64,000 bases of DNA from positions 842-64,841 of the forward strand of contig JBAZSL010000003.1 in the NCBI GenBank assembly GCA_041662445.1, in the 5' to 3' direction. The position numbers were made by a program, and so were the translations under genes. Origin of the DNA: Candidatus Babeliales bacterium (GTDB lineage Bacteria; Babelota; Babeliae; Babelales; RVW-14). The notes beneath the pieces are model-generated. The model worked only from the letters and a program-made list of their open reading frames with translations. It had not been told where the DNA came from and did not search any database. Of this stretch, positions 21,723 to 41,310 are shown in pieces; positions within the stretch are counted from its first letter, which is position 1; every line of letters begins with the position of its first letter.

Positions 21723-21978
21723 ACGTGTTCCTTCCAAAAACGCTTTGGCAGGCGAAAACTTTTATTATTCAATCTGGAGTTAAGATTATAGCGTAAGGAT
21801 GAAAAGGCTCAAATTGTGCGGAGAAAGCAGCGTTTTTGCCATCTTCGCTTCTGCATTCCACAATTGTATCGATCGAGAGAACCATCCAGGGTGACGGCGT
21901 ATACTCTACAAGATTGAAATTCTTGTTTTATACCGTGTAGGTGGTAGCCTAGCATAAATTACGGAGGCAGTGGTGAAG

Positions 21979-22998
21979 ATGAAAAAGATGATCTTGCTGA
22001 CGGGGGGATTAGGTTTCATCGGCTCGGTTACCGCGCATGTTCTGAGGAGCTTGGGTTACCAGATTGTCATCATCGATAAATTGCTACATCGTCAGACCTG
22101 TACTGCTCCTTGGGCGCATGTCATTAAGGGCGATATTACCAATCGAGCTCTCCTTCAGAGTATTTTTGATGAATATGATTTTGCAGCAGTAATGCACTTT
22201 GCAGGACTGATTGAGGTTGGTGAATCGGTGATACACCCTGATCTGTTCTACAGCAACAACGTTATCGGCTCGCTGACACTTCTTGATGTAATGCGTGCGC
22301 ATGGTGTTTCAAATTTTGTATTTTCCTCAAGTTGTGCGGTTTATGGAACGCCTCAGTATGTTCCTCTTGATGAAAAGCATGCGTGTGCGCCCGTGAGCCC
22401 CTATGGTAAAACTAAACATGCGGTTGAATATGCGCTCCAGGATTATGCCGCAGCATTTGATATGCGTTTTGTTATATTGCGCTACTTTAATGCGGCCGGC
22501 GCATTGCCAGCAGAAAATCTTGGCGAATGTCATGATCCAGAAACGCATGCTATTCCCTTGTTGCTTCGTGCAGCGCGAGAAGGTAAGTCGTTTTCAATTT
22601 TTGGTACCGATTATGATACTCCAGATGGTACCTGTATTCGTGATTATGTACATGTTCATGATATTGCACAGGCGCATGCCAATGCAGTGAACTATTTAAT
22701 GCAGGGTGGCGTATCAGAGATTTGTAATCTTGGTACGGGTAATGGTTATAGTGTTCGTGAATTGATTACAACAGCACAACGCATATGTGGCTGGAAAATT
22801 TTAACCACGGCATGTGCCCGACGATCGGGCGACGTTGCCATCTTAGTAGCAAATGCAACCAAAGCGTCGACCCTCTTGGGATGGAAGCCGGTGCGATCTG
22901 ACCTTGACACCATCATGCGTGATGCGTGGGCATGGGAACAAAAACTTCTTGTGGCGCGAACAACTCCTCAACCAATAACGTCATCGGATAATGATTGA
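21979..22998 (+). CDS. galE: UDP-glucose 4-epimerase
   Basis: Rossmann motif LLTGGLGFIGS, catalytic YGKTKHAVE (YxxxK), and CIRDYVHVHDIAQAH. The ORF opens at GTG 21970; ATG 21979 follows the ACGGAGG SD. Confidence 0.9.
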   Translation: MKKMILLTGGLGFIGSVTAHVLRSLGYQIVIIDKLLHRQTCTAPWAHVIKGDITNRALLQSIFDEYDFAAVMHFAGLIEVGESVIHPDLFYSNNVIGSLTLLDVMRAHGVSNFVFSSSCAVYGTPQYVPLDEKHACAPVSPYGKTKHAVEYALQDYAAAFDMRFVILRYFNAAGALPAENLGECHDPETHAIPLLLRAAREGKSFSIFGTDYDTPDGTCIRDYVHVHDIAQAHANAVNYLMQGGVSEICNLGTGNGYSVRELITTAQRICGWKILTTACARRSGDVAILVANATKASTLLGWKPVRSDLDTIMRDAWAWEQKLLVARTTPQPITSSDND

Positions 22999-24523
22999 GG
23001 GCATCGTGGTATCCCTGAGCAAAAATGATAAAATTTTTCTGGGCGTTCTTTTTGTTGTCTCGTTTCTTATCCGCGCATTTGTTTATCAGATGTATATACG
23101 GCAGGATCAGCGCTATTGGCAAGTTGATTCAGCAACCTATCATCGCGTTGCAACCAGTATTGCGCAAGGCCATGGAATTTCTCTCCCCAATGGACAGCCG
23201 AATTTTTACCGTTTGCCTGGTTACCCCGTTTTTATCGCCTTTTTTTATAAGCTGTGGGGCAATGATCCTGAAAAAGCCTTATGGGCTCAGGTTGTGCTTG
23301 CATCATGTATTCCATTGCTTATCTTTTTACTTGCCGGTGTTATTTTCCCGCGCCGGCGTTGGCTTGCATATGGTGCGGGTGTTTTAAGCGCGCTGCATCT
23401 TGGGCTTGTACTCTACAGCAGTTTTTTTATGACCGAGTCGCTCTTCATTTTTCTCTTCCTCTGCTTTTGTCTTTATTTCTTTGCGGCGGTGCATCTATGG
23501 TTTTGTGACGAAAAAGAACTTGCGCCCATTGTTCAGTGCCACGGGACCGCTCCTGTGTGGCGATGGATGCCGGAAGGTGCTGCCGCTGTTCCATCATATG
23601 AAAAATTTTATGAACGTTTGCAGTACGGCAAAGAAATGAGCTGTGCCCCGTGCCGTGGTAATCCGCAGACGCAGTATCTTTTTATAGCAGGTATTTTTCT
23701 TGGGCTGTCTTCATTGGTTCGTCCCGTTGGCCATTATATGCTGGCAGTTGCCCTTTGTATGCTCCTTTGTTCGCGGGGTACATGGACAGCGCGTATTCGA
23801 GGTTCATGCGCAGTGAGTAGCGCATGGTTGTTGATGGTGGCTGCGTGGCTGATACGTAACTATATGCTGTTGGGCCACCTCTTTTTTCATACGCTTCCGG
23901 GCGGACACTTTCTTTATTTATCTGCGGCACGCGTTGCAATGCATCCTCAGCAGTGTTCGTATCAACAGGCGCGGAATAATCTTGCGCGTGAGGTGCACGA
24001 TCTTATTGCTCATCAAGAACACGACGAGGGGCATACTCTTAACGAGATTGAGCGGTGTTATGCGCACGAAGCAGTTGCGCGCCATTATTTTATTTCCTAT
24101 CCGTTCATTACACTCAAGACGTGGTTAACTGATATGACTCGGACGAGCCTCTCGCTGTATTCTTCAGAGCTTGTCTTTCTGGAATCTGGCCGTGTCGAAT
24201 ATGATTATTTTGCAAAGAATCGTACATGGTGGGACATGTTTAAACGCTACCTGATGTCCAACACCACGAACATGTGCCTGAGGGCAATTGTGTATGGCGA
24301 AATTATCATTTTTTTCCTGATACTTCTTGGCTTTATGATAGGATTTTTGTCGATGTTATGCGGAAGGTATTCACGTGCGGCTACCTGTTCATGCTTGCGT
24401 ATGCTTCCCTTTATGACATTGTTTATCATCGTTGCGCTTTCGGGCGGGTATGCACGTATGCGTTTGCCGATCGAGCCCTTGCTCTTGATTTGTTCTTTGT
24501 ACGGTTGGCTGATTCATGATTGA
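22991..24523 (+). CDS. Polytopic GT-C-like glycosyltransferase, family A paralog 1 (ArnT/PMT_2-like)
   Basis: About 12 TM helices. First-loop motif DSATYHRVATSIAQGHGISLPNGQPNFYRLPGYPVFIA. Mid motifs SLVRPVGHY and WLIRNYMLLGHLFFHTLPGGHFL. C-terminal ARMRLPIEP. 8-nt overlap with galE. Confidence 0.65.
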   Translation: MIEGIVVSLSKNDKIFLGVLFVVSFLIRAFVYQMYIRQDQRYWQVDSATYHRVATSIAQGHGISLPNGQPNFYRLPGYPVFIAFFYKLWGNDPEKALWAQVVLASCIPLLIFLLAGVIFPRRRWLAYGAGVLSALHLGLVLYSSFFMTESLFIFLFLCFCLYFFAAVHLWFCDEKELAPIVQCHGTAPVWRWMPEGAAAVPSYEKFYERLQYGKEMSCAPCRGNPQTQYLFIAGIFLGLSSLVRPVGHYMLAVALCMLLCSRGTWTARIRGSCAVSSAWLLMVAAWLIRNYMLLGHLFFHTLPGGHFLYLSAARVAMHPQQCSYQQARNNLAREVHDLIAHQEHDEGHTLNEIERCYAHEAVARHYFISYPFITLKTWLTDMTRTSLSLYSSELVFLESGRVEYDYFAKNRTWWDMFKRYLMSNTTNMCLRAIVYGEIIIFFLILLGFMIGFLSMLCGRYSRAATCSCLRMLPFMTLFIIVALSGGYARMRLPIEPLLLICSLYGWLIHD

Positions 24524-26312
24524 GTTAGTGAAAAAATGTGTACATCCTCTGAGTAGTTTTTTTGCGCAACATCCACGGCTGACCATTGGTTTTGTGGCAT
24601 TGAGTGTAAGAATTATCGTTGCGTATATTTTTTATGGAAGTTGTGACATCGATGCCTTCACCGAAATTATCGGCTGTATTGTGCTTGATGGTCCGATATC
24701 ATATGGCATCAAAAATTGGAACATGTTGCCTTCGATATCATTTTACCTCTGGTTTGCAGGCTTTTTGGCGGCCAAAACACCGCTGCTCCTTGCGCTATGT
24801 ATTAAATTAATTCCAATTTTCTGTGATGCGGCATTGGCGCTCTTACTGTATGAAATTGTGTTTGTGCAAAGATCTGCGCAGGCGTTTGGCGTTGGCCTTT
24901 TGTATGCACTTTGTCCTGTGTGCGTTGTAATAAATGCAATCCACGGACAATGGGAATCGGTCTTTTTGCTCCCGCTGCTCTTAAGCTTTTATGTGAGAGA
25001 ATACGGAGCCCCATCGTACACAACATCAGTAATTTTTGGAGCACTCTTCGGATTATCAGTTCTCATAAAGCCCGTAAGTTTACTTTTTTTACCATTCTTT
25101 TTCACACCATGTCCTGGAGTGGCGCATGCCCTTGGTCGGTGGTGGCATTATTTAAAAATTATGGGGATTGTGGGTGTTGGTATTGCTAGTGGAATAGGGG
25201 CTTTTCTTGGGTGTACAAAGTATCGGCTCATGGAGGGTTATCCCTTTATCCTGCACTATCGATTAACGTTGAGCGTTTTAGCTTTCTGTGTACTCATGGT
25301 GCTTGTAGGTATGATTAAAAAAATTATTACACTTTCGCCGCAGTTTAAACGGTATGCCGTGCTCCAGCTTGCGGCAATGGCAAGTTTTATGGTGGTAATG
25401 GGTGGCGCATTCTTAGCGTTTACGCTTTTAAAATTTAACCTTTTGGGATTACTTGATACGTGCCTTCGTTATGCCAATAAGGGTCCTCAAGGCTTTGGCC
25501 TCCGTTTAGTTGTTTCATCTATCTGGCCATTGTTGGGAAGCATAATGGAAAATCGCTTGGTCCTGTTGCTCTGGGTTGCCGCGAGTGCGTGGGCCTATTA
25601 TCGACAGAAAATTGATGTGTTTGATGCCATGGTAGTGGTTTTTGCTGGAATTTTTGGCTTCTCAGGCTTGTGTCCGCACTACCTCATATGGCTTGTTCCC
25701 TGTGCTCTTCTTGTTGGTATGTATTGCAGTATTGGCCTCTATGGTTTTCTTACCACGCTCTTGTACGCCATGTACTACAACCCACCACAGCAATGCGATT
25801 GGGCGTTTTTGTATCGCCTGAGTTTTGCACCGCTATCATCATATTCATGGCTTGCACCGCATGAATGGTTAAAAACGAATGACATTGTTGTGCCGTTAAT
25901 GGCATTAGTGGGTAATTGGCTCATTCCGTTAAGTTGTTGGCTTATGGTGTGGCAGATAGCGATAAAAAATCGTCATGAAAGAAGCACCTCATGCGATGCA
26001 AAAAAACATAACGGCATTCCTGGTAGGTGGTTTATTACGCTGATCATTGGCGTTTCAGGCATGATATTGTTGTTAATGTGCGTGACCGATCACCAAACTT
26101 TAGCGGTTACGTTTAATCAGAAAGCTCTTGCCCGCTATGCGCCTTATGCCATTGTGTGTAACGGTGCTTACGTCCTGCGATCAATGGATATTATGCGCGC
26201 AGCGGCATTGCCCTATTGTAATGCCGTGACCCTCTTGTTGCTGTGGGGCGTGTTGTGGTCGCTGGGTATTGTGTGGTTTGGGTTCACACAGCGGCACAAG
26301 GTACTAACGTGA
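24516..26312 (+). CDS. Polytopic GT-C-like membrane protein, family B paralog 1
   Basis: 598 aa with more than 12 TM helices. AYIFYGSCDIDAF, IHGQWESV, CLRYANKGPQGFGL and CPHYLIWLVP are shared with the next gene. 8-nt overlap (ATGATTGA) with the upstream gene. Confidence 0.55.
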   Translation: MIELVKKCVHPLSSFFAQHPRLTIGFVALSVRIIVAYIFYGSCDIDAFTEIIGCIVLDGPISYGIKNWNMLPSISFYLWFAGFLAAKTPLLLALCIKLIPIFCDAALALLLYEIVFVQRSAQAFGVGLLYALCPVCVVINAIHGQWESVFLLPLLLSFYVREYGAPSYTTSVIFGALFGLSVLIKPVSLLFLPFFFTPCPGVAHALGRWWHYLKIMGIVGVGIASGIGAFLGCTKYRLMEGYPFILHYRLTLSVLAFCVLMVLVGMIKKIITLSPQFKRYAVLQLAAMASFMVVMGGAFLAFTLLKFNLLGLLDTCLRYANKGPQGFGLRLVVSSIWPLLGSIMENRLVLLLWVAASAWAYYRQKIDVFDAMVVVFAGIFGFSGLCPHYLIWLVPCALLVGMYCSIGLYGFLTTLLYAMYYNPPQQCDWAFLYRLSFAPLSSYSWLAPHEWLKTNDIVVPLMALVGNWLIPLSCWLMVWQIAIKNRHERSTSCDAKKHNGIPGRWFITLIIGVSGMILLLMCVTDHQTLAVTFNQKALARYAPYAIVCNGAYVLRSMDIMRAAALPYCNAVTLLLLWGVLWSLGIVWFGFTQRHKVLT

Positions 26313-28045
26313 AAAATGCGCTACACCGGATACTCATCTTTTTTCTTGCCATAGTTGTTCGTGTTCTTCCGGCATACATTTTTTATGGAAGTATCGACGT
26401 ATCAGCTTTTATCGGTATACACGCGCATACGCTCAACCATACATTGGAACTTTATCCAGCAGCGATATGGTGTTCTTTCCCGGTCATTCCATTTTATTTA
26501 TGGTTGTGTGGCTTAATAAGCATACTCACCAGTTTGCCGCTCGCATTCTGTTTTAAAACAATACCAATTTTTTTTGATGCTCTGCTTGCCGTGCTTCTGT
26601 TCGACCTCGTGCGTCACGTGCGGCCACAGCATGCTCTGCGTGTTGGTGTGCTCTACGCGCTTTCTCCCGTTGCCATTATTATTACCTGCATTCATGGCCA
26701 ATGGGAGGCGTTGCCCATATTTTTCTTTGTGCTTGCACTGTATGTACGTACCTGTTTTCAGGATTCATACAAAAAATATTTTATGTACGGTGCGCTGTTT
26801 GCTTTTTCGTTTCTCCTTAAACCACTGCCCATGGTATTTGGGTTATTCTTCTTTGTGCCGTGGCCATTCCTGCGACAGCATCTTGGTCGATTGTATTCCA
26901 TCATGTGTGTTCTCGGTTCGGTGGCGATAGCGCTTATCGGAGTCGTTTTTGTTGCATGTAAAATAAATCGTTCATTATCTCTGAGCGCGTGCATGCGACA
27001 TGTTGCAGTATCCCCTTATCTGCTCGGCAGTGTTGGTGCATTAGTTGTGCTTGGTGTTGTTCTTGTTGTATCTGTAAAGCCATGGTTAACATGGCCGCCT
27101 GATTTTAAAAAATATCTTGCATATCAGCTGAGTGGGATTGTCGGCGCGCTTGTGATGATCGGGATATGTTTTATAGCGCTTACAGCATATGGCTTTAATG
27201 TGATCTGTATGATTGATAAAGTGTTGCGTTACTTCAATCAAGGAATTCAGACGTGTGGGTTGCCCTTCGGCTATCCCTTTAATCAGGGCGTTTTTGCGCT
27301 CGTGCTCAAAAATCGCGTGTGGCTTATGATGGTAATAGCATTTTTTGCGGTGCTTTATTATTACGAGAAATTTGATATTTTCCATGCGGTTCTTGCAAGC
27401 CTCATGCTCATTTTTGGCGCCTCTGGTATTTCGCCGCAGTACCTGCTATGGATTCCGCCTTTTTTATTGATTACCGGTTTTTATCGTGTTGCAGCTCTGT
27501 TTACGATTGCTGGCACTGCTTTTTTTTCTGTTTACTACATGCATCCGATGACCAATCCTGTGGTTCCTTATCAAAGTATGCTGAGTTTTGCAGCGCTTAA
27601 GCCTTGTGCCTGGTTAATGCCGCCCTCATTTCTGATGCAAGAGTGGAGTCTTATGTGTGTAAAAGCTCTTGGTAATTATAGTGTGCCGCTGGTGTGTTTG
27701 GGAACCGTTGCTGCAGTGCTGTGGTATGTTCGCAGCGGAACATTAAGGCTTAATTTTTCTGACCAGCAACCATTGTGCATCATAAAAAACGGATATCTCA
27801 TGGCAAGTTTTTGCCTTACGGCAGGTATCGCATTGCTTATGGCAGTAGTTACGCAAACGGGCCATGCTGAAATTTTTAGATGCCGTTATGCCCAGGCGTT
27901 AGATGCCTACAACGTTGTGTATATCGGCTCGTATGTGACAGGGAATTACGGACCGATAAAAATATACAATATAATTTTTTTGCTGAGTCTTCTTACTCTT
28001 GTGTGGAGTGTGAGTGTATGGCACATGCGCGAGAAAAAAACATAA
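26309..28045 (+). CDS. Polytopic GT-C-like membrane protein, family B paralog 2
   Basis: AYIFYGSIDVSAF, IHGQWEAL, VLRYFNQGIQTCGL and SPQYLLWIPP parallel the upstream paralog. The ORF opens at 26243; GTG 26309 gives a GTGA overlap with the upstream stop. Confidence 0.55.
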   Translation: MKNALHRILIFFLAIVVRVLPAYIFYGSIDVSAFIGIHAHTLNHTLELYPAAIWCSFPVIPFYLWLCGLISILTSLPLAFCFKTIPIFFDALLAVLLFDLVRHVRPQHALRVGVLYALSPVAIIITCIHGQWEALPIFFFVLALYVRTCFQDSYKKYFMYGALFAFSFLLKPLPMVFGLFFFVPWPFLRQHLGRLYSIMCVLGSVAIALIGVVFVACKINRSLSLSACMRHVAVSPYLLGSVGALVVLGVVLVVSVKPWLTWPPDFKKYLAYQLSGIVGALVMIGICFIALTAYGFNVICMIDKVLRYFNQGIQTCGLPFGYPFNQGVFALVLKNRVWLMMVIAFFAVLYYYEKFDIFHAVLASLMLIFGASGISPQYLLWIPPFLLITGFYRVAALFTIAGTAFFSVYYMHPMTNPVVPYQSMLSFAALKPCAWLMPPSFLMQEWSLMCVKALGNYSVPLVCLGTVAAVLWYVRSGTLRLNFSDQQPLCIIKNGYLMASFCLTAGIALLMAVVTQTGHAEIFRCRYAQALDAYNVVYIGSYVTGNYGPIKIYNIIFLLSLLTLVWSVSVWHMREKKT

Positions 28046-29415
28046 TAATAGGGCAGCGTCGCTTTCTGCTGGCGATATTTGTGTTTGCTTTGATCATAAG
28101 GCTAGCCTTATTTTTCGCTTTTTTGCGGCAGGGAACTAATGCATGGTTGCCATTTGATTCTGATCAGTACTATCGTATTGCGCACAACATTGCCGCAGGC
28201 AACGGTATGTGTTTGGTGCCCGGCGAGCCGCAAATGTACCGTCTTCCTGGGTATCCGTTATTTTTGGCGCTGGCGTTACCATTGGGTGGAATTGAACGTG
28301 CGTTACTTTTTCAACTAGTGCTTTCATGTCTCATTCCTATACTCATTTTCTTCCTTGCATTGCAGCTCAAGTTTTCGCTTTCATGTGCGCGCCTGGCTGC
28401 GGTGTTGAGTTGTGTGCATGCCGGTTTGATTACCTATGCTGGTATGGTAGCAACAGAAACATTGTTTCTTGTTTTTTTACTTCTGTTCTTTATTATTTTT
28501 TTACCCTATGTGCGCATGCAGTGGTGTGTGATACCAGTTCATAACTCGATTTATCGTATGATAGGGGCCGGAGTACTTCTTGGCATCGTTTCACTTATTC
28601 GTCCTGTTGGCCATTACCTGGTGATTCTTTCAGTAATCATGCTTATGGTGGGAGCATCAATGCGCGAATGGTTGAGGAACGCCGGTGCGCTTGTTCTTGG
28701 ATGGGGATTATTAGTTGCTCCTTGGGTTGTACGAAATTTTTTTCTTACAGGAGCTTTGCTTTTTCATTCATTGCCCGGGTTGCATTTTCTTCAATATACT
28801 GCCGCATACATCGTTATGGAGCGTGATCATTGTTCGTATGGCGATGCACGTCCGTTGCTTATGCACCAACGTGATGAGGCTATTGCTCAACGCATAGCAC
28901 ACCAGCGGCGGCCACTTACCGAATATGAGGCATGCTGTTGCGCACAAAAGATTGCGACATCATATGTGTATGCATATCCCTGGCTTTTTATAAAAACAGC
29001 ATGCGTGCAAATGCTTAAAACGTGTTGCGGCCTTTATGCCGCACAGCCCTTGATGACTGATGCCTACCGCTGGCCGTCGTATACCTATGCCACAACAACA
29101 TGGACCAAAATAAAACGGTTTCTTTTTCCTGCCGTGCGTCATTGTTGCCTTATTTTTTTTATTTACTACGAACTATTTTTGTGGCTCATGATGATCATTG
29201 GGTTGTGCGGTGCGTGTTTGAGCGCTTTTTACGATAAGACGTTGAGCTGTGCTTTGGCAAAAGCAGCGCCGTATGTGGTGCTGTTGGTTGGTGTTACGTT
29301 GGCGTATGGTTGTGCGCGCTTACGATTACCGGTTGAACCATTTATTATTATTTTTTCAGGAGCTGGGTGGTTATGGTTACGTGGTCGGTGGTTAAAAAAG
29401 AAAAATATTTTCTGA
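28018..29415 (+). CDS. Polytopic GT-C-like glycosyltransferase, family A paralog 2
   Basis: FDSDQYYRIAHNIAAGNGMCLVPGEPQMYRLPGYPLFLA, SLIRPVGHY, WVVRNFFLTGALLFHSLPGLHFL, and C-terminal YGCARLRLPVEP. ATG 28018 overlaps the upstream gene by 28 nt. Confidence 0.65.
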   Translation: MAHAREKNIIIGQRRFLLAIFVFALIIRLALFFAFLRQGTNAWLPFDSDQYYRIAHNIAAGNGMCLVPGEPQMYRLPGYPLFLALALPLGGIERALLFQLVLSCLIPILIFFLALQLKFSLSCARLAAVLSCVHAGLITYAGMVATETLFLVFLLLFFIIFLPYVRMQWCVIPVHNSIYRMIGAGVLLGIVSLIRPVGHYLVILSVIMLMVGASMREWLRNAGALVLGWGLLVAPWVVRNFFLTGALLFHSLPGLHFLQYTAAYIVMERDHCSYGDARPLLMHQRDEAIAQRIAHQRRPLTEYEACCCAQKIATSYVYAYPWLFIKTACVQMLKTCCGLYAAQPLMTDAYRWPSYTYATTTWTKIKRFLFPAVRHCCLIFFIYYELFLWLMMIIGLCGACLSAFYDKTLSCALAKAAPYVVLLVGVTLAYGCARLRLPVEPFIIIFSGAGWLWLRGRWLKKKNIF

Positions 29416-32043: not shown

Positions 32044-33479
32044 AAACTAACGCAAAAAAGGAAGCGCTTATCATTGGCTCAGGGCCGGCAGGGCTTACCG
32101 CTGCACTTGAACTTGCACGATCTGAAAAGCTCAGAGTGCTTGTTGTTGAAAAAGAAAATGTGGTTGGTGGGCTTGCTAAAACTATCGAATACAAAAGATG
32201 CCGTTTCGATATTGGTCCGCATCATTACCTTACTGAATCAGCTAAAGTATTGCAGTGGTGGCGTGAGCGTATGAAAGATGACTTTCATATGTATAAGCGC
32301 TTTACGCGCATCTACTATAAGAAAAAATTTTTTAACTACCCGCTCGAACCGCTCAACGTTATCAAAGGACTCAGCTTTGCCGAATGTCTGCGTTGTGTTG
32401 CCAGTTATCTTAAGGTGCGCATTTTTCCGATTCGTCGTGTAAAATCGTTTCAAGATTGGGTAACCAATAAATTTGGCCGTCGTCTTTATTCAATGTTTTT
32501 TAAAACGTATACAGAAAAATTATGGGGTATTCCTTGTACCACACTTTCAGCAGATTGGGCATCCCAACGCATCAAAGGATTTTCTCTTTTCCATGCAATT
32601 TTTTATGCCTTTTTTGGTCGTTGGTTTATCAATAAGCCGCGTACCATTCGTGATACGTTTTACTATCCATCACGTGGTTCTGGTACCTTGTGGGAACATG
32701 CTGCCCTTGAGCTCCAAAATTATGATAAGGCACGAGTTCTTTTGCGGACCGAGGTTGTTGCAATAGAACATGCCGAGCATGAAATCACTGCGGTATGGGT
32801 ACGTACTATTTCCTCCGCTAAGGGTGCAGCGTCAACTCTTAAACATCATGGAATTGATTATCTTATCTCGTCTATGCCCTTACGGCATTTTGTTTTATCA
32901 ATGGATCCGCTTCCACCTGAAGCAGTTGTCAACGCTGCGCAAGCTCTTCGTTATCGCGGATTGATTATCATTAATCTTATCGTCAACAAAGTTTCGATAT
33001 GTCCTGATCATTGGTTGTATATACATGACAAGGATGTTGCGATGGTGCGTTTGGATAACATGAATAATTTTTCCCTGCGTCTTGTCGATGATGCAACAAC
33101 ACACACAACATTATGTCTTGAATATTTTGCATGGCCCGATGATAGCGAATGGAAAATGGCTGACAAGGATCTTGTTAAACGTGGCGCTGAAGAGCTGGAA
33201 AAAATTGGTCTTGCTCATGCATCCGATGTTATTGATGGTACGGTGGTGCGTGTTGGTGAGGCATATCCGGTTTACGATGAGGGATATGATCAGCACGTTC
33301 AGGTAGTGCGTTCGTATTTAGCACAATTTCGTAATCTTCATCTTGTAGGGCGTAATGCATTGCACCAATACAATAATATGGATACAGCAATGCTTACCGC
33401 GTTTGATGCTGTTGACAAAATTCTTGCTGAACAACCACAGCCGGTAGCGCAACCATCCTCATTATCATCTCTCACGTAA
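32040..33479 (+). CDS. FAD/NAD(P)-binding oxidoreductase of the HemY/amine-oxidase/UDP-galactopyranose-mutase-like superfamily
   Basis: N-terminal dinucleotide fold ALIIGSGPAGLTAALELAR...VVEKENVVGGLAKT. The C-terminal VGRNALHQYNNMDTAMLTAF resembles the GR..Y.Y.NMD tail of Glf-like enzymes. ATGA overlap with the upstream gene. Confidence 0.7.
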   Translation: MKTNAKKEALIIGSGPAGLTAALELARSEKLRVLVVEKENVVGGLAKTIEYKRCRFDIGPHHYLTESAKVLQWWRERMKDDFHMYKRFTRIYYKKKFFNYPLEPLNVIKGLSFAECLRCVASYLKVRIFPIRRVKSFQDWVTNKFGRRLYSMFFKTYTEKLWGIPCTTLSADWASQRIKGFSLFHAIFYAFFGRWFINKPRTIRDTFYYPSRGSGTLWEHAALELQNYDKARVLLRTEVVAIEHAEHEITAVWVRTISSAKGAASTLKHHGIDYLISSMPLRHFVLSMDPLPPEAVVNAAQALRYRGLIIINLIVNKVSICPDHWLYIHDKDVAMVRLDNMNNFSLRLVDDATTHTTLCLEYFAWPDDSEWKMADKDLVKRGAEELEKIGLAHASDVIDGTVVRVGEAYPVYDEGYDQHVQVVRSYLAQFRNLHLVGRNALHQYNNMDTAMLTAFDAVDKILAEQPQPVAQPSSLSSLT

Positions 33480-33488
33480 CGGGTAATT

Positions 33489-35444
33489 ATGTGTGGAATT
33501 GCAGGATTTTATAATCTTGGTCGCAGCAATTTTTTTGTACATGAGTTGTTGCTTATGCGTATGCAACAGCGTCTTGTTCATCGTGGGCCTGATGCTGGTG
33601 GTATATGGAAATCCCAAGAGCACGGACTCGGTCTTACTTCACGCCGGCTCAAAATTATTGATCTATCTGACGCCGGCAATCAGCCGTTTTATCACAAAGA
33701 TCACAATATTGTGCTGTGTTATAACGGTGAAATTTATAACTATCAAGTGTTGCGTACGCAACTAGAGCAACTGGGCTATCGATTCACATCAACTTCTGAT
33801 ACCGAGGTAATTGTAAACGCCTACCACGCGTGGGGAATCGACTGCTTATCGCGCTTTGAAGGCATGTTCGCCATTGCGCTCTTTGATTGCGCACGCAAAA
33901 AGAGTTATCTCGTGCGTGATCGTATGGGCGTCAAACCGCTCTATTTTTCACTTCAGGGCGGGGTGCTGAGTTTTGCATCTGAGATTAAAGCCTTATGGGA
34001 ACTGCCGTGGATTGAAAAAAAGTTTAGTAACAACGCCCTGTATCACTATCTCACGTTTATGGTTGCGCCAGCACCCTGGACCATTTTTGACGGTATCTAT
34101 AAACTGCCCGCCGGATTTTATCTTGCTGTTGACGACCAGCGACGTGTATCATTTCACGAATGGTATAATCCGCTTACGTCATTAAGCGTGTCAGAAAAAA
34201 AAGAATATAATTCAGAGCCTTTCTGCCGTGAACGCATTAGAAATTTGTTAGTTGATTCAGTTAATAAACGCATGGTGGCCGATGTTCCGGTTGCCGCGTA
34301 TCTTTCAGGTGGGCTTGATTCAAGTTTGATTGTTGCATTAATGGCGCGATCTTCGTCAAACATTGCCACGTTTACCGTTGCTTTTGATGATGATGAGAAT
34401 GATGAGCGTTCCTGGGCGCGACGCGTTGCGTCTCGTTACGGAACCGATCATCATGAAATTGTTATTACTGAGCGAGATGCCTTTGATTATTACCATCGTA
34501 TGGTGCCAGCACTTGATGAGCCGCTTGCCGATTGCGTGTGCATTCCCTTTTATTATGTTTCTCAGCTTGCTCATGACCATGGTATTAAAGTGGCACAAGT
34601 TGGGGAGGGGGCTGATGAACTTTTCTTTGGGTATGCATCATACCTACGTTATGCACGTATGATGCAACGCATGGATCGCCTAGTGCCGCCATTGCCAATG
34701 ATGATGCGTTTGGGTATTGCTCGGTCGCTTTCCCCCTTGATGCGTGGCCGGCCGTTGCGGTCTGAATTTGTCGATAATTGGCGACATGGGCGCGTGCAAT
34801 TTTGGGGCGGTGCTCTTGCCTTTGGTGAAATGCAAAAGCATAAGATTCGTGATTTTTTTGCCGACCGTTCTCCTGTGTATGATCCAATTATTGAACAAAT
34901 ATATCCCGGTATGCGACAAGATTTTGATAGCTATGCGATTGTTGATTATCACCGTTCGCGTCTTATGCAGCTTGATCCAGAAGCTGATATGGGAAAGCAG
35001 ATGCTTTATCTTGAGCTCAAACAGCGTCTTCCCGAGTTGTTGCTGATGCGTGCGGATAAAATGTCGATGGCAGCAAGCGTAGAAGCTCGTGAGCCGTATC
35101 TTGATCACAAATTAGTTGAGTGCATGCTCAATATTCCATGGCACATTCGTTGCCGTGAGGAGCAGCCAAAATATCTTCTGAAAAAAGTTGCCGAAGAGTT
35201 TCTTCCCAATGACATTGTGTATCGTCCTAAGGTCGGTTTTGCAGCTCCTACATACCGCTGGATTGAGAAGGGAACCTTCTTTAAACCATATTTTGAAAAT
35301 CTTGCGCATGATGTCGATAGTATTACCGGTCACCATGGTTGGTTGGGTGCGGTTCTGGCAGAGGATAATAAAAATGTCATGCACCGTGCGGTGCAGAATT
35401 GGACGTTGCAACAGATGTGGGCTTTTATGCGGACAATGGCGTGA
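33489..35444 (+). CDS. asnB: Asparagine synthase (glutamine-hydrolysing)-type amidotransferase
   Basis: Ntn Cys at position 2 (MCGIAGFY). PP-loop AAYLSGGLDSS. 651 aa. Sits in a glycan-locus context. Confidence 0.9.
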   Translation: MCGIAGFYNLGRSNFFVHELLLMRMQQRLVHRGPDAGGIWKSQEHGLGLTSRRLKIIDLSDAGNQPFYHKDHNIVLCYNGEIYNYQVLRTQLEQLGYRFTSTSDTEVIVNAYHAWGIDCLSRFEGMFAIALFDCARKKSYLVRDRMGVKPLYFSLQGGVLSFASEIKALWELPWIEKKFSNNALYHYLTFMVAPAPWTIFDGIYKLPAGFYLAVDDQRRVSFHEWYNPLTSLSVSEKKEYNSEPFCRERIRNLLVDSVNKRMVADVPVAAYLSGGLDSSLIVALMARSSSNIATFTVAFDDDENDERSWARRVASRYGTDHHEIVITERDAFDYYHRMVPALDEPLADCVCIPFYYVSQLAHDHGIKVAQVGEGADELFFGYASYLRYARMMQRMDRLVPPLPMMMRLGIARSLSPLMRGRPLRSEFVDNWRHGRVQFWGGALAFGEMQKHKIRDFFADRSPVYDPIIEQIYPGMRQDFDSYAIVDYHRSRLMQLDPEADMGKQMLYLELKQRLPELLLMRADKMSMAASVEAREPYLDHKLVECMLNIPWHIRCREEQPKYLLKKVAEEFLPNDIVYRPKVGFAAPTYRWIEKGTFFKPYFENLAHDVDSITGHHGWLGAVLAEDNKNVMHRAVQNWTLQQMWAFMRTMA

Positions 35445-35446
35445 CC

Positions 35447-36775
35447 ATGGACTGCTTCAATCGCAATTTCTACGCTTGCCTGCTTGCCTGCGTCGTATTT
35501 TCTCTTTTCTCGTGGTTCCTGTATTGCCAGGTATCCCCCACGCATCCACATTGTGATATTGATTCCAAAGCCTATCTTGAACGCGGATTTTTATGTGCGC
35601 AAACAGGAAGGTTTGTTACGGCAACAAGTCCAGAGCAGCCTTATTATGCTCTTGGGTATGCGGGCATCATCGGCCTTCTCTATCATATTTTTTGGCCATC
35701 CCCTGTGCTTATTATTCTCTTGCAGCTTCTTCTTGCCTGTATGTCATGCTTCATTATGATGCGCTGTGCGCGACTGCTTTTTGGCATGCGTGCCGCAGGA
35801 TGGGTGGCGTTCTTTTTTGCCGTGAGTCTTGGGTATCTTGTTTTTGTGCAATTTGTGTTGACCGAAATTGTGTTGTCGTTTTTTCTTTTACTTTCTTTTG
35901 AGCGGCTTGTGACGTGGATAACATTTCATGGTGCGTCGTTATGTCCACTTGCAACTGCCGCACTGGCTCTTGGCCTTTCAATTGCCATTAAACCAGCAGC
36001 TCTTTATAGCGTCTTTATACTTGCACCACTTATTGGATATGTTGCCGGTACATGGCGACAACGTTTAATCCGTAGTGTGGTATTTGCCCTCTGCTTTTAT
36101 ATTCCCGTTGTGGGGTACATGACCTACAACTATCATGCATTTGGTAATTTTTGCGTGAGTACACTTGATCGCGTTAATGTGTATTACTGGTTTTTTCCCA
36201 ATGTGCTTGCACATCTTCATGGCACGACATCAGATGCTGAGCGGTTGTCGCTTCTTGCGCGTTCGCAGGGTACACATAATTTTGCCGCGGTTGAAAATCT
36301 TTTTTGGCAAAGCCTGCGTGATAATCCATGGATTTTTATATATGTGTGGATCAAAAATGTTCTCAAAACATTTGCCGGCCTTTATACCACCAATCTTAAA
36401 GTGCTCATTGCGCCATCGGTGCATGGCATAGGTGTTTCGTTTTTTAAAACGTCGGGCACACTGATCACGCGTGTGTGGTCATACATTGCTGCAGGAGCTC
36501 CCGCCCCATGGGTAATCATCATAGGGTGTTGTGAGGCAGTGTTGTCATTGTTGCGCTATTTCTTGTGTCTTATAGCACTTGTAGGTCTTATACGATGTAA
36601 AAAAATAGTGCCGGTGGCGTTGTGCTGTGCATACATTGTCTATTTTTCGCTCATTACCGGGCATGATGGTTGTGCTCGATTCCGTATGATGTTTGAATTT
36701 TTGCTCATCATTCTTGCCGCTGGCGGATGGTCAATGATGATGAACCCGGCGGGGGACGTATGCAACGAAAGGTGA
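35447..36775 (+). CDS. Polytopic GT-C-like membrane protein, family C
   Basis: About 12 TM helices. First-loop acidic motif HCDIDSKAYLERGFLCAQTGRF...PEQPYYALGY. The ORF opens at 35399 inside asnB; ATG 35447 lies 2 nt after the asnB stop. Confidence 0.5.
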   Translation: MDCFNRNFYACLLACVVFSLFSWFLYCQVSPTHPHCDIDSKAYLERGFLCAQTGRFVTATSPEQPYYALGYAGIIGLLYHIFWPSPVLIILLQLLLACMSCFIMMRCARLLFGMRAAGWVAFFFAVSLGYLVFVQFVLTEIVLSFFLLLSFERLVTWITFHGASLCPLATAALALGLSIAIKPAALYSVFILAPLIGYVAGTWRQRLIRSVVFALCFYIPVVGYMTYNYHAFGNFCVSTLDRVNVYYWFFPNVLAHLHGTTSDAERLSLLARSQGTHNFAAVENLFWQSLRDNPWIFIYVWIKNVLKTFAGLYTTNLKVLIAPSVHGIGVSFFKTSGTLITRVWSYIAAGAPAPWVIIIGCCEAVLSLLRYFLCLIALVGLIRCKKIVPVALCCAYIVYFSLITGHDGCARFRMMFEFLLIILAAGGWSMMMNPAGDVCNER

Positions 36776-36779
36776 TGGT

Positions 36780-37853
36780 ATGAAAGATATTTATTGTGTC
36801 ATTCTTGCAGGCGGAGCAGGAGAGCGATTGTGGCCTCTCAGCTCATATGTGCGCCCCAAACAACTTATTCCTTTCATTAATGGCTCATCGCTGCTTGAAC
36901 AAACAGTGCAACGTGTTCAAGCGGTTGTAAAAAATAAAAATCATCTTATGGTGATGACCCATGCTGAATTGCAGGAACCTATCAAAAAAATGGTTGGTAA
37001 GCAGGCTACTGTTTTTACTGAGCCGGTAGGGCGCAACACTGGTTCAGCAATACTTTTAAGTTGTCTTGAAATTTACGACAAAAACGAAGATGCAGTTGTC
37101 GTTGTTATGCCATCCGATCATTTTATTCCCGAGTACGAGAAATTTTCCTCATTACTCTTAGCGGCTGCTGCGTTTGCTTCATGTTACGATCAACTTGTGT
37201 TGTTAGGTATCAAGCCGACAACGCCAGCAACTGGTTATGGATATGTGCGCTACAAAACTGAGCTTATGCCGGGATGGGCATGTTTTCCCGTACAAAAGTT
37301 CCACGAAAAGCCTGATAAAGAGCAGGCGCAACGGTATCTTGAACAGGGCGACATGCTGTGGAACAGCGGCATCTTTGTTGGGCGGGTTAAAGTTTTTCTT
37401 GATCAATTTCAGCTATGGGCGCCCGAGCTTTGGAGCGCCGTTGCCGCCTATCGCGCTAACCAATGCGCCTATGATCAGGTGCCCTCTATTTCCATTGATC
37501 ACGCGGTACTTGAAAAAAGCGATAAGATCGTGATTTTTCCTGCGCATTTTGAATGGCACGATGTTGGCACCTTGCCAACATTTTTGATGCTCAAAGCACA
37601 ACATGAGAAAGAATCTACTGCAACTAAGGTTATCAATGTTGATGCGACCAATAACATGGCATGCGCTATAAAAAAGGTTGTCGCATTTGTTGGCGTTGAT
37701 AATCTGTGCGTAGTCGAAACCGATGAAGCGCTCTTGGTTGTTGCGCATGATCGTGTTGAGTCTGTGCGCGATGTGTCATCAATTTTAAAGACCAAGGAGA
37801 GCAAAGATGCTGGTCGTTCAAAGAGCTCGCTGGCGACGGAGGATTCTTTGTAG
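36780..37853 (+). CDS. manC: Mannose-1-phosphate guanylyltransferase (nucleotidyltransferase domain only)
   Basis: VILAGGAGERLWPLSSYVRPKQLIPF matches the ManC/CpsB N-terminal signature. Also GYGYV and WNSGIFV. Confidence 0.85.
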   Translation: MKDIYCVILAGGAGERLWPLSSYVRPKQLIPFINGSSLLEQTVQRVQAVVKNKNHLMVMTHAELQEPIKKMVGKQATVFTEPVGRNTGSAILLSCLEIYDKNEDAVVVVMPSDHFIPEYEKFSSLLLAAAAFASCYDQLVLLGIKPTTPATGYGYVRYKTELMPGWACFPVQKFHEKPDKEQAQRYLEQGDMLWNSGIFVGRVKVFLDQFQLWAPELWSAVAAYRANQCAYDQVPSISIDHAVLEKSDKIVIFPAHFEWHDVGTLPTFLMLKAQHEKESTATKVINVDATNNMACAIKKVVAFVGVDNLCVVETDEALLVVAHDRVESVRDVSSILKTKESKDAGRSKSSLATEDSL

Positions 37854-39699
37854 CCTAATCCTTTTTGCGCTTGTTGTCGGCGTATTCGCCTATGCTGTTG
37901 ATACATTATGGTTTCGCGAAGATGATTTAGGCCTCATCATTAATGGTTTTATGGATAGTTGGCGCAATTTTTTTCGCGTTCTCTTTTCTGACTGTCGCTC
38001 CTTTATTACGCCATGCAATTATCAGCGCACTATCCCCAATGTAGTCTCTGGCTTTTTACGTCCCATACAGCATATTTTTCTTTCACTTGTCTATGCTATC
38101 TGGGGCGTTGATCCCGTGCCTTACTACTATGCAAATGTTCTCTGCCATGCGGCAAATGCTGCTTCATTGGTGGTGGTGAGTAGTATCTGGCTTCCGCTGA
38201 CACTTGCCTGGAGTATCGGTTTTATTTTCGCCTTTTATCCTGACATGACCTGGCTGGTGTGGATAACAACGTTGCAAAATAGCTTGGCAACCTTTTTTTT
38301 ATTGCTGACGATACTTGCCTGTTGTGCCTATATCTGGGCTTCAACGCCTTCGCGGCGTATATGGTGGTGGTGGACATCAGGATTCTTATTTCTTTGCTCA
38401 CTTCTTTCACGCGAAACGGGTATATTTTTGCCGGTGTGGTTTTTTATGGGAGCCTATATCTTTATGACTGCGGCTGATATGCCGTGGTGGCAGAGAACCA
38501 AACAGGCGGCAATGCATGCCAGTATTTTCTTTCTGAGCACCGCTGTTTATTTTTTGATGCGTCTTTGTGCTTTTGGGGTCCATACATTGCCTCGCACGAT
38601 GCATAATCTGACGCTTCGTTATCCTTGCTTGCAATCATGTGCCCAACATGATCAAGTGATAGCGGCGGTGGCGCGACGTGTCCAAGCAGTTGCTCGATCG
38701 GTACAACAAGGAGATGTTGTAGCTTCGTTGTGGAATACACTGTGTGATCATTGCTGTGTCTGGTTAAGTGTAGCGGCAAATGTTGCACTCAAGACTATGT
38801 GGCACAAATGGCTAGCCGTCTGCATTGCGGGCGCATTAATTATTTTCCTCGTGCGTGCATTTAAAGGGCATGGCGCGATTCTTGGTTGGTTGGTGATTGG
38901 ATTAGGTTGTACGCTATGGCCAGGATTGCTAGCTTATCCGAGCCAACGGTATTTGAACCTGATGTACCCCTTCATTATTTTTATTATCATCTACGGAGTG
39001 TATGCGGCGCACAAATATGGTGACAGTATCTGGATGCGTTTTGTTTCACTTATTATTCTTATGTCGATGTGGGGAATGGGTATACGAGGGATGTATACTA
39101 ATATGTGTGGGCTTGAAAGTGCTGCGCATGGTTGTTACGCGTACAAGCAACGGTTTGAGGATTTTTTCGCACGATATCATTTTGATCCCGCTACAAACTT
39201 TGTCATCGTATCAACGCCTTTTGTCTCTGATATACAGAGTATTTTTCAGGCCTTTCTTAACAATCGAACGACACGTGTTGTATGTGATCCTTTTTCCACC
39301 ATTGCCCAACAGGGCATCATGGGATGTCGTAAAGATTATCGCATTACCGGCGTACCGAGTACCATGGTGTTTATTCCTGGCGGTATACGGTTAATCTCAC
39401 AAGATTCGCTCCATTGTGGATGGTGGCTACGTTTTTCAGATTTTCCCCTCGCCTGGTCAGAGGAACAGCGGGCATACGCGTGGACCAATGAGCCTTATCG
39501 CGAGGGCATATGGTATCGCTGTTCAATAGGTAAATTTATGATTAACAAACAAATTGATGAGAATTGTGCTGCCGATATTTCATTTGTCTTTGATGCTCGC
39601 TGGATTGATGATAAAACCATTTTTGTGGCGTGGGATACCGTTGAAGGCCGCTATGTTGTGTGCTCGTCATCACGAGGGTCATACATTAAGCTAAAATGA
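37807..39699 (+). CDS. Polytopic GT-C-like membrane protein, family D, with a ~190-aa soluble C-terminal domain
   Basis: The first-loop motif WFREDDLGLIING resembles the DD/DE motif of PMT/TMTC-type GT-C enzymes. About 11-13 TM helices, then a hydrophilic tail. Strong SD AAGGAGAG 6 nt before ATG 37807. 47-nt overlap with manC. Confidence 0.5.
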   Translation: MLVVQRARWRRRILCSLILFALVVGVFAYAVDTLWFREDDLGLIINGFMDSWRNFFRVLFSDCRSFITPCNYQRTIPNVVSGFLRPIQHIFLSLVYAIWGVDPVPYYYANVLCHAANAASLVVVSSIWLPLTLAWSIGFIFAFYPDMTWLVWITTLQNSLATFFLLLTILACCAYIWASTPSRRIWWWWTSGFLFLCSLLSRETGIFLPVWFFMGAYIFMTAADMPWWQRTKQAAMHASIFFLSTAVYFLMRLCAFGVHTLPRTMHNLTLRYPCLQSCAQHDQVIAAVARRVQAVARSVQQGDVVASLWNTLCDHCCVWLSVAANVALKTMWHKWLAVCIAGALIIFLVRAFKGHGAILGWLVIGLGCTLWPGLLAYPSQRYLNLMYPFIIFIIIYGVYAAHKYGDSIWMRFVSLIILMSMWGMGIRGMYTNMCGLESAAHGCYAYKQRFEDFFARYHFDPATNFVIVSTPFVSDIQSIFQAFLNNRTTRVVCDPFSTIAQQGIMGCRKDYRITGVPSTMVFIPGGIRLISQDSLHCGWWLRFSDFPLAWSEEQRAYAWTNEPYREGIWYRCSIGKFMINKQIDENCAADISFVFDARWIDDKTIFVAWDTVEGRYVVCSSSRGSYIKLK

Positions 39700-41205: not shown

Positions 41206-41310
41206 AAAAAATCAGTAAATTCAGTGATTATTACATATCGTTCTTGTTTCTGTTCCCAAAACGTAGTACCCTTTGCGCGTTGTTTTAAAACAAACCGTGA
41301 AAGGTTTTTT

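Follow-up and report, generated by a model that had tools for sequence, protein, structure and literature searches.

A 17.7-kb operon on the plus strand (positions 21979-39699) of a Candidatus Babeliales MAG, lying in the 64,000-nucleotide stretch analysed here (the window), comprises twelve tightly packed genes for GalE, eight polytopic membrane proteins, a flavoprotein, an AsnB-type amidotransferase and ManC (Table 1). Fold and profile evidence, which differs in strength between families, assigns all eight membrane proteins to the GT-C-type glycosyltransferases. The operon probably serves to assemble a glycan at the periplasmic side of the inner membrane, via a relay of GT-C enzymes and tailored precursors, and was probably inherited vertically in the Dependentiae (order Babeliales).

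Between 21970 and 39699 lie exactly twelve open reading frames of at least 300 aa, all on the plus strand, and their order is that given by an earlier sequence-only reading of this DNA. That reading had also put no junction at more than 9 nt of overlap or gap. Several overlaps are larger, however, when the genes start where the public assemblies place them (28 nt for B2/A2, 43 nt for A2/A3, 29 nt for A3/A4 and 47 nt for manC/D), and the twelve genes are still tightly packed on a single strand. The eight membrane proteins, 450-630 aa in length, are strongly hydrophobic, and models of A3 and B1 are nearly all-helical with about 11-16 membrane-length helices, in agreement with the polytopic architecture proposed before. 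Just downstream of the operon, a Thr-rich secreted protein is encoded at 41224-42045.

Table 1. Genes of the operon and its downstream neighbour
Gene	Product	Position	Strand	Remark
galE	UDP-glucose 4-epimerase	21979..22998	+	start 21970/21979/21988 ambiguous
A1	PMT_2/ArnT-like GT-C glycosyltransferase, 'core' paralogue	22991..24523	+	
B1	GT-C-fold protein, second unannotated family	24516..26312	+	
B2	paralogue of B1	26255..28045	+	start 26243/26255/26309 ambiguous
A2	PMT_2/ArnT-like GT-C	28018..29415	+	start per public assemblies
A3	PMT_2/ArnT-like GT-C, modelled member of family A	29373..30725	+	
A4	PMT_2/ArnT-like GT-C	30697..32043	+	
flavoprotein	cytoplasmic flavoprotein, uncharacterised family NF005548 (PRK07208)	32040..33479	+	
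AsnB-type	glutamine-dependent amidotransferase	33489..35444	+	
C	divergent A-type GT-C (PMT/PMT_2 clan)	35447..36775	+	start 35399 or 35447
manC	mannose-1-phosphate guanylyltransferase without isomerase domain	36780..37853	+	
D	GT-C membrane domain and C-terminal soluble domain	37807..39699	+	
242-aa protein	one N-terminal membrane anchor	39795..40523	+	possible accessory or mere syntenic neighbour

Checking synteny in related MAGs, as the sequence-only reading had proposed, located the cluster in at least 14 genomes with the same gene order recurring, indicating that the arrangement is more than chance and, given the single strand and overlapping genes, that it forms one functional unit. The conserved core is A1-flavoprotein-(AsnB)-C-ManC(-D), while the A and B expansions vary. 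Its most constant member is the flavoprotein; galE is the first cluster gene in many relatives and is adjoined by A1 in most, and the AsnB-type gene keeps its position in most relatives but is missing from two clusters (L013 and L021). Across genomes, orthologues of the A1 type separate clearly from the remaining paralogues (594 versus 198 bits in one example), and in closer relatives the paralogues keep position-specific orthologues, indicating old, distinct specificities. Uniform G+C content and conserved synteny of the flanks (OPT, LexA-like, S6, HisRS) indicate that the operon is not a recent island. The 242-aa protein found no family match in profile searches; its homologues, 42-45% identical, directly follow manC or D in L006, L008, L012, L016 and L035. 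Full-text literature searches found no earlier description of the locus.

The four A proteins are mutually 31-39% identical over their full length (A1 versus A2-A4, 31-36%; A2 versus A3, 39%, E 7e-88; A4 versus A3, 36%, E 7e-71). PMT_2 matches occur in 20 of 43 family A members, A1 itself matching weakly (Pfam, E 0.0027). When a confident model of A3 (pLDDT 89.7, pTM 0.91) was compared with the PDB by Foldseek, ArnT (5ezm) came out on top, followed by PglB, STT3, Pmt1/2, Pmt4, PIG-U, ALG3, AftA/B and DPY19, and the top solved-structure matches at Foldseek probability 1.0 were all GT-C enzymes. In BLAST comparisons, C shows a weak relationship to A, and D remains on its own. By hhalign, the C family aligns with the A family over its full length (probability 100%, E 1.4e-42), and 9 of 12 C orthologues match PMT_2 (best 9.3e-14) and 5 of 12 match PMT. 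The D family aligns with a merged A+C profile along the entire membrane domain (probability 94.3% in local and 96.9% in global mode; E 1e-7 to 3e-10), with four invariant positions coinciding (D46/D39, R74/R85, R191/R202 and R429/R381 in A+C/D), the loop-1 Asp among them; 3 of 40 D homologues match PMT_2. In D the membrane domain (residues ~1-430) precedes a soluble domain of ~190 residues, and D39, D40, C507 and C537 are invariant across relatives; one distant relative, P0184, carries a fusion to TPR repeats. These results place six proteins, A1-A4, C and D, in the PMT_2/ArnT-like clan, with strong support for A and C and good support for D.

B1 and B2, 32% identical over 573 aa (E 2e-75), share the invariant residues of a second family. 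The best solved matches of a B1 AlphaFold2 model (pLDDT 78.3, pTM 0.84) were ALG6, ALG3, PIG-U, STT3, ArnT and ALG9, with TM-scores to target of 0.49-0.58 for ALG6, ALG3 and PIG-U, and distant family B relatives carry GT87 or PMT_2. Foldseek E-values are modest for both models, at 7.5e-4 for A3 and a weak 0.028 for B1. The fold model suggests that B1 and B2 belong to an ALG/PIG/GT87-like GT-C family. The lumenal steps of the eukaryotic N-glycan and GPI pathways (ALG3/9/12/6/8/10, PIG-M/V/B/Z) likewise employ a GT-C relay in which each enzyme transfers one particular sugar from a polyprenol-phosphate donor. By contrast, the similarity is at the level of fold only (10-13% identity), family B has about 14-16 helices in about 600 aa, and the present genes form a bacterial operon.

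The acidic motif that had been noticed in the first extracytoplasmic loop is present in all four families, where the residues after TM1 are invariant across relatives (D46 and Y50 in A; D44 in B; D55, S56 and Y59 in C; D39 and D40 in D). The position of the loop-1 Asp is that of the active-site residues D55/E56 of ArnT and D77/E78 of Pmt1 (PMC7801869). Basic N-termini of the membrane proteins, and the soluble domain of D with its invariant cysteines, were counted toward a periplasmic orientation. It is highly improbable that the membrane proteins are instead transporters, polymerases, ligases or dead scaffolds like PIG-U. None of the eight reaches a Pfam or NCBIfam threshold, searches with the family profiles (A, B, C and D) retrieved no solved structure, and both models match, among others, PIG-U, which has the GT-C fold but is not catalytic. 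However, structure and profile searches returned transporters and respiratory-complex subunits at Foldseek probability of at most 0.13 and no Wzy/ligase-type family, and the invariance of the loop-1 Asp and of conserved basic residues in all four families would be unexpected for dead scaffolds. The GT-C class first suggested for all eight proteins is thus retained.

Membership of the PMT_2/PMT clan bears on a different and rather unlikely possibility, a protein glycosylation system of PMT/TMTC-like O-mannosyltransferases or TfpW-like pilin glycosyltransferases, whose paralogues would each serve their own secreted or envelope targets or lengthen a protein-bound glycan. PMT and TMTC paralogue families with differing protein targets are known. 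The likeness to PMT (GT39) and TMTC (GT105) enzymes includes PMT/PMT_2 matches in relatives of A, C and D, Pmt1/2 and Pmt4 among the matches of A3, multiple paralogues, and a loop-1 acidic pair, which in D is an invariant DD of the TMTC/PMT type. The TPR fusion of P0184 resembles TMTC proteins, ManC suits a mannose donor, and the Thr-rich secreted protein directly downstream would fit as well. By contrast, the window proteins carry no MIR or TPR domain by Pfam and fall below its thresholds, and their genes share a cluster with sugar-nucleotide enzymes. The presence of GalE, the flavoprotein and the amidotransferase implies a hetero-glycan and not mannosylation alone, family B is closer to glycan- and lipid-elongating enzymes (ALG, PIG, GT87) than to protein transferases, and no acceptor protein was identified.

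Of the cytoplasmic enzymes, GalE matches TIGR01179 (383.8 bits, cut-off 262.3) and Pfam Epimerase (1.4e-55), while ManC contains NTP_transferase (3.3e-35) and ManC_GMP_beta-helix and matches TIGR01479 over model positions 1-352 of 467. The AsnB-type protein, with GATase_7 and Asn_synthase domains, scores 479.7 bits against TIGR01536 (cut-off 267.1), and its N-terminus, MCGIAG, bears the catalytic Cys. The flavoprotein has an amine-oxidase/NAD_binding_8 fold and matches NF005548 (515 bits, cut-off 389). All of its nearest solved structures are UDP-galactopyranose mutases (best 3ute, E 2e-16, residues 8-244), and its N-terminal 240 residues can be aligned with mutases from fungi, protozoa and bacteria across the FAD-binding region and a Y-x-x-K-x-W segment; GalE is encoded in the same operon. 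However, only this half is mutase-like, the C-terminal half giving no PDB match and no mutase. The protein also falls short of the mutase models TIGR00031 (61.9 bits versus a cut-off of 303.75) and Pfam GLF (14.8 versus 26.3). The flavoprotein is best described as a distant, uncharacterised relative of UDP-galactopyranose mutase. In other phyla, too, orthologues are neighbours of GT-C genes: those from Reyranella, PVC-group, Binatia and other MAGs adjoin PMT_2/PMT/PIG-V-like proteins.

For the proposed periplasmic relay, we suggest the following donors, order of action, acceptor and product. Each GT-C would expose its invariant Asp in the first periplasmic loop, with a conserved basic residue holding the phosphate of the polyprenyl-phosphate sugar, by analogy with solved GT-C enzymes. 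The enzymes would work in sequence, each adding one sugar or linkage to a lipid- or protein-bound glycan. The four cytoplasmic enzymes would supply and tailor precursors: ManC would provide GDP-mannose and GalE UDP-galactose, pointing, as the only two indications, to a mannose- and galactose-containing product. The flavoprotein may remodel a sugar donor, possibly from pyranose to furanose, and the AsnB-type enzyme may amidate a carboxyl group on the glycan or a precursor, or could instead act on peptidoglycan or free aspartate. GT2 enzyme(s) loading sugars on polyprenyl phosphate, and a flippase, would be encoded elsewhere in the genome.

As the sequence-only reading had noted, the locus itself contains no soluble GT-A/GT-B enzyme, Wzx/Wzy, ABC exporter, initiating phosphoglycosyltransferase or GT2 polyprenyl-phosphate-sugar synthase. 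Neither the window, the 8.7 kb beyond its end nor the related clusters yielded a lipid-sugar synthase, flippase, initiating transferase or exporter, and Wzx/Wzy was likewise not found in the window or in those clusters, which leaves us to infer the supply of sugar donors; the other glycosyltransferases in the window are a MurG-like GT28 and, 19 kb upstream, a GT4. Decoration of an existing peptidoglycan, lipid or polysaccharide made elsewhere (Gtr/ArnT-type), with every GT-C attaching one side-branch sugar and peptidoglycan precursors being amidated by the AsnB-type enzyme, seems quite improbable. AsnB homologues of similar size amidate peptidoglycan diaminopimelate in some bacteria, the window contains lgt besides the MurG-like gene, and A3 finds its best structural match in ArnT. 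To our knowledge, however, no decoration system has near eight transferases, a number that, with their old and distinct orthologues, far exceeds any such system, and no GtrA/GtrB-type partner genes lie beside any cluster. Lipid A, the acceptor of ArnT, is reportedly absent from Babeliales. Bacteria employ the GT-C fold most often to add side chains from lipid-linked monosaccharides, and three-component systems (GtrA/GtrB/Gtr*, ArnC/ArnE-F/ArnT, CsbB/GtcA/YfhO, GT136 pentofuranose systems) share the periplasmic GT-C and lipid-linked monosaccharide (PMC11127046). By contrast, theirs is one GT-C with an adjacent GT2 synthase and flippase, whereas the present cluster has eight GT-C genes and neither partner.

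Mycobacterial arabinogalactan and LAM are assembled by GT-C enzymes (EmbA/B/C, AftA-D, PimE, MptA/B/C) acting in sequence at the outer face of the membrane with polyprenyl-phosphate monosaccharides, their genes being partly contiguous (aftA-embCAB) and the redox enzymes DprE1/E2 tailoring the donor. The analogy with this emb/aft machinery, drawn in the sequence-only reading, holds for the logic, in that many GT-C enzymes are proposed to act in sequence on the outer face, with AftA and AftB among the weaker A3 matches and distant B relatives matching GT87, the PimE family. It does not hold for the families, which are here the PMT_2/ArnT-like clan (A, C and D) and an ALG/PIG/GT87-type family (B). 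The window yielded neither a UbiA-type phosphoribosyl transferase nor DprE1/E2, the fold of the flavoprotein is of the amine-oxidase/mutase type rather than that of DprE1, and the host is a reduced, diderm, reportedly LPS-less parasite.

Given that Babeliales are diderm and reportedly lack LPS genes (PMC4776705, PMC6561590), the likeliest product is a surface lipoglycan or an envelope glycan standing in partly for LPS. A parasitic bacterium of the Dependentiae (TM6) probably makes a surface glycan, so far undescribed, at the external side of its cell membrane.

Exactly twelve long plus-strand open reading frames occupied 21970-39699 of the window, in the order that a sequence-only reading had assigned to them: galE, the polytopic proteins A1, B1, B2, A2, A3 and A4, a flavoprotein, an AsnB-type amidotransferase, the polytopic protein C, manC and the polytopic protein D. 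The junctions of at most 9 nt claimed by that reading were inexact, given that four of them overlap by 28-47 nt in the public annotation of this DNA, which also supplied the gene starts in the table; the remaining junctions are overlaps or gaps of a few bases. Simple promoter and terminator scans showed no enrichment compared with shuffled sequence and did not delimit an operon, and Rfam and tRNA scans of the window returned nothing. Strongly negative AT skew over the GT-C genes (-0.20 to -0.30 in window 22001-32000) is most simply explained by the T-rich codons of very hydrophobic proteins. The G+C content is uniform throughout the window, and a horizontal-transfer island was ruled out because of this uniform composition and the conserved flanking synteny.

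Positions of locus genes (starts), of nearby window genes and of genes in loci fetched from other genomes (L numbers)
Feature	Position	Strand	Remark
Sel1 protein	window 19960-20862	+	eukaryote-like effector
dual-specificity phosphatase	window 21030-21737	-	eukaryote-like effector
galE	start 21979/21988	+	
A1	start 22991	+	
B1	start 24516	+	
B2	start 26255/26309	+	
A2	start 28018	+	
A3	start 29373	+	100% identical to Candidatus Babeliales MAG protein WCW33_04690
A4	start 30697	+	
flavoprotein	start 32040	+	
asnB-like	start 33489	+	
C	start 35399/35447	+	
manC	start 36780	+	
D	start 37807	+	
242-aa protein, one N-terminal membrane anchor	window 39795-40523	+	no family match
1206-aa ankyrin protein	window 42710-46330	+	eukaryote-like effector
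NF005548 orthologue/GT-C-like pairing	L024 1839-3077		outside Dependentiae
NF005548 orthologue/GT-C-like pairing	L027 1531-3603		outside Dependentiae
NF005548 orthologue/GT-C-like pairing	L029 12823-14859		outside Dependentiae
NF005548 orthologue/GT-C-like pairing	L031 8156-9460		outside Dependentiae
ankyrin/LRR/WD40 gene	L007 7659-8549		interrupts cluster of a relative
ankyrin/LRR/WD40 gene	L007 14681-15829		interrupts cluster of a relative
ankyrin/LRR/WD40 gene	L011 7570-8499		interrupts cluster of a relative

BLAST grouped the eight membrane proteins into A1-A4 (31-39% identity) and B1-B2 (32%), with C weakly akin to A and D separate. Scanned directly against Pfam and NCBIfam, none of the eight exceeded a threshold, and sequence profiles of the four families produced chance matches only against the PDB. 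Because the direct family scans were empty, support for a GT-C assignment was drawn from relatives, profile-profile comparison and structural models. Hydropathy, together with models of A3 and B1 that are helical throughout, indicated a polytopic membrane domain with the 7-13 or more helices of this fold, and the basic N-termini pointed to a cytoplasmic location of that end. An acidic residue in loop 1 is invariant in every family (D46 in 43 A, D44 in 16 B, D55 in 12 C and D39/D40 in 40 D sequences), and profile alignments placed D46 of A on D39 of D and on D44 of B. The loop-1 acidic pair of TMTC has been aligned with the active-site residues D55/E56 of ArnT and D77/E78 of Pmt1 (PMC7801869).

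Family A has at least 227 relatives, nearly all of which, where they carry a name, belong to Dependentiae/TM6; 20 of the 43 aligned members matched PMT_2. The A3 model was confident (pLDDT 89.7, pTM 0.91), and its Foldseek matches among solved structures were ArnT (E 7.5e-4), PglB, STT3 and Pmt1/2, each with a probability of 1.0, followed by Pmt4, PIG-U, ALG3, AftA/B and DPY19. Transporters appeared among these matches with negligible probability only, and a non-enzymatic role of the membrane proteins, for which the empty family scans would leave room, is unlikely. Family C aligned with A over its full length (hhalign probability 100%, E 1.4e-42), with a PMT_2 match in 9 of its 12 orthologues and a PMT match in 5 of 12.

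Family B was represented by 16 relatives in a word-indexed search and by 1411 in an exhaustive profile search. Some distant relatives of about 400-420 aa matched GT87 (P0314 and P0322) or PMT_2, and B1 and B2 themselves had no Pfam match to GT87 (PimE-type, PF09594). The B1 model (pLDDT 78.3, pTM 0.84) was matched to solved ALG6, ALG3 and PIG-U at probabilities of 0.99-1.0, and also to STT3, ArnT and ALG9, with E values of only 0.03-0.2; the invariant D44 lies just past TM1. A total of 47 full-family relatives were found for D, in which D39/D40 is invariant within a WFREDD motif right after TM1, the C-terminal soluble domain carries two invariant cysteines and 3 of 40 members matched PMT_2. 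The first pairwise profile comparisons were weak (probabilities of 16% for A-D, 8% for A-B and 1% for B-D). A merged A+C profile reached 54% against B and 94-97% against D, in the latter case over the whole membrane domain (94.3% local and 96.9% global, E 1e-7 to 3e-10), with coinciding invariant residues D46/D39, R74/R85, R191/R202 and R429/R381 (A first, D second).

The combined evidence identifies all eight membrane proteins as GT-C-type, so that the earlier proposal of eight such enzymes is borne out by Foldseek on the A3 and B1 models and by the profile homology of C and D. Six of them (A1-A4, C and D) form one PMT_2/ArnT-like clan, while B1 and B2 are a separate ALG/PIG/GT87-like family, and we infer that all eight use polyprenyl-phosphate-linked sugars as donors. 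In contrast to the protein O-mannosyltransferases of PMT/GT39, which carry a MIR domain in their large lumenal loop, the window proteins have no Pfam PMT (PF02366) or MIR match. In contrast to ArnT/GT83, the arn genes (ArnA-D, ArnE/F) are absent from the window, the likeness of A3 is at the level of the fold (14% identity), and the acceptor of ArnT is lipid A, whereas Babeliales reportedly have no LPS genes.

Among the four soluble enzymes, GalE scored above the TIGR01179 equivalog cut-off, and ManC contains nucleotidyltransferase and beta-helix domains with the isomerase domain absent. The amidotransferase belongs to the glutamine-hydrolysing asparagine synthase family by score (TIGR01536, 479.7 bits versus a cut-off of 267.1) and by its N-terminal MCGIAG with the catalytic Cys; it fell below the PEP-CTERM-type TIGR03108 (468.7 versus 816.9), and among solved structures it is closest to a hydroxyamidotransferase and next closest to asparagine synthetases. 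The flavoprotein matched NCBIfam NF005548 (PRK07208.1-4, uncharacterised) with 515.4 bits versus a curated cut-off of 389. Every solved structure that it matched significantly is a UDP-galactopyranose mutase (best E 2e-16), with the likeness confined to residues 8-244. Neither mutase model was reached (TIGR00031, 61.9 versus 303.75 bits; Pfam GLF, 14.8 versus 26.3), and the C-terminal half, searched alone against the PDB, matched no mutase or anything else. An assignment as UDP-galactopyranose mutase was therefore dropped, and the flavoprotein is described as mutase-related; it is a clear member of the uncharacterised family NF005548.

The flavoprotein also has orthologues (35-42% identity) in MAGs that bear the labels Reyranella, PVC group, Binatia or 'uncultured bacterium', where they adjoin polytopic proteins matching PMT_2, PMT or PIG-V-type mannosyltransferase. 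This recurring adjacency in other phyla speaks for a joint function of the flavoprotein and GT-C enzymes, the simplest version being that the former prepares the donor of the latter, and suggests a widespread, unrecognised pairing of the two.

Partner genes were sought with Pfam among the remaining ORFs (150 aa or longer) of the window up to 54.6 kb; for its final 12 kb and for 8.7 kb past its end, the stored annotation was used. The only other glycosyltransferases in that range were a MurG-like GT28 and, 19 kb upstream, a GT4. Wzx, Wzy, ABC exporters, initiating transferases and GT2 polyprenyl-phosphate-sugar synthases, which the sequence-only reading had described as absent from the locus, were not found in the window, in the 8.7 kb past its end or in the gaps of related clusters, and neither was a GtrA. 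A Gtr-type three-component system has an adjacent GT2 synthase and a small flippase; by contrast, neither was seen at the locus or in the gaps of the related clusters examined. The MurG-like GT28 (10531-11619, minus strand) scored 133 bits, the murG cut-off being 250, and overlaps the start of a 606-aa TPR protein (11616-13436, minus strand); this pair may be something other than housekeeping MurG.

Conservation was then assessed in species-representative genomes with the flavoprotein as anchor, and the fetched loci were scanned with purpose-built profiles. Orthologues with at least 49% identity marked 18 loci, with at least one adjoining A gene in the 14 long enough to show it, confirming that the cluster recurs in related genomes. 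Clusters generally follow the scheme [galE]-A(1-6)-[B(0-2)]-flavoprotein-[AsnB]-C-ManC-[second SDR]-D, ranging from galE-A1-flavoprotein-AsnB-C-ManC in the smallest clusters (L035, L016 and L017) to that of the window, the most elaborate among the loci scanned. Given that the closer relatives (L003, L004, L005 and L034) possess a positional orthologue of their own for every paralogue, the paralogues are old and distinct. The gaps inside the clusters of relatives are occupied by ankyrin, LRR or WD40 proteins. Homologues of the 242-aa anchored protein (42-45% identical) lie directly past the cluster in L006, L008, L012, L016 and L035, and this protein is possibly a thirteenth component, or else its position is simply conserved synteny.

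Two flavoprotein copies were present in L011 (667-2178 and 9962-11470), L015 (542-2053 and 7105-8613) and L021 (1407-3023 and 9965-11467), the second copy in these Dependentiae clusters being more divergent and located at the head of the A-gene array. Sugar-nucleotide dehydrogenases precede the cluster in two genomes: in L013 (3764-7311) the A genes are directly preceded by genes for a UDP-sugar 6-dehydrogenase and for a fusion oxidoreductase of ADH/GFO-IDH-MocA type, and in L017 (5957-8221) by that for the same fusion oxidoreductase. They hint at uronic or diamino sugars as potential targets of AsnB-type amidation.

The flanks of the window, with ankyrin, Sel1, phosphatase and TLC ATP/ADP translocase genes, fit an intracellular parasite of the Dependentiae (TM6). 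Three close TLC-type translocase genes are located at window 60088-62754 (minus strand) and beyond it (L037 491-1825), and such clustering is typical of energy parasites. A paralogous pair at 41224-42045 and 42067-42720 (plus strand) combines signal-peptide-like with hydrophobic segments and matched no family; the first protein contains a Thr-rich tract, TTRQETTSTTNHWTEDISTTTGTTKT, that could be an O-glycosylation target. A histidyl-tRNA-synthetase-like ORF at 18337-19323 (plus strand) showed only a weak anticodon-binding-domain match (E 7e-4), its syntenic counterpart in L003 is a full HisRS, and it may be a degenerate or repurposed HisRS paralogue.

The best-supported reading of the locus is a glycan assembly line on the periplasmic face, whose donors, acceptor, order and product are putative. 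Lipid-linked monosaccharides would originate from GDP-mannose and UDP-galactose and be consumed sequentially by the eight GT-C enzymes; additional modification of those sugars would fall to the flavoprotein and the amidotransferase. Babeliales are diderm, with a 'degenerated' envelope reported to lack LPS genes (PMC4776705; Chromulinavorax in PMC6561590), and for this reason a surface lipoglycan is the most attractive product. The same enzymes might instead serve protein O-glycosylation or decorate another polymer. The boldest form of the lipoglycan reading, which we regard as rather improbable when taken whole, is that the operon makes the missing outer-leaflet glycolipid of LPS-less Dependentiae, a lipoglycan put together almost wholly on the periplasmic side in a relay of eight GT-C enzymes. 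At least one donor would then come from a new class of mutase-like flavoenzyme, which together with a GT-C enzyme would form a two-part module that is shared, so far unrecognised, by several other bacterial phyla.

Neither GT-C enzymes nor pathways with several of them are novel in themselves; the novelty lies in the operon. No earlier description of it was found in the searchable literature, nor were its family composition, its association with a flavoprotein of NF005548 and an amidotransferase of the AsnB type, or its Dependentiae-wide conservation. To our knowledge, it is among the longest runs of bacterial GT-C genes. Members of the widespread phylum Dependentiae live as obligate parasites of protists, and in their genomes of 1.0-1.5 Mb the 17.7 kb of this conserved operon, with its eight GT-C genes, take up a large share. 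A few isolates can be grown in amoebae or flagellates, which makes the prediction testable. The operon would bear on the question of what covers the outer membrane of Dependentiae. If it makes the main surface glycan, several unannotated GT-C families (A, B and D) would join the catalogue, the uncharacterised NF005548 family, a companion of GT-C genes in other phyla too, would gain a function, and the parasite-host interface would be defined by the operon.
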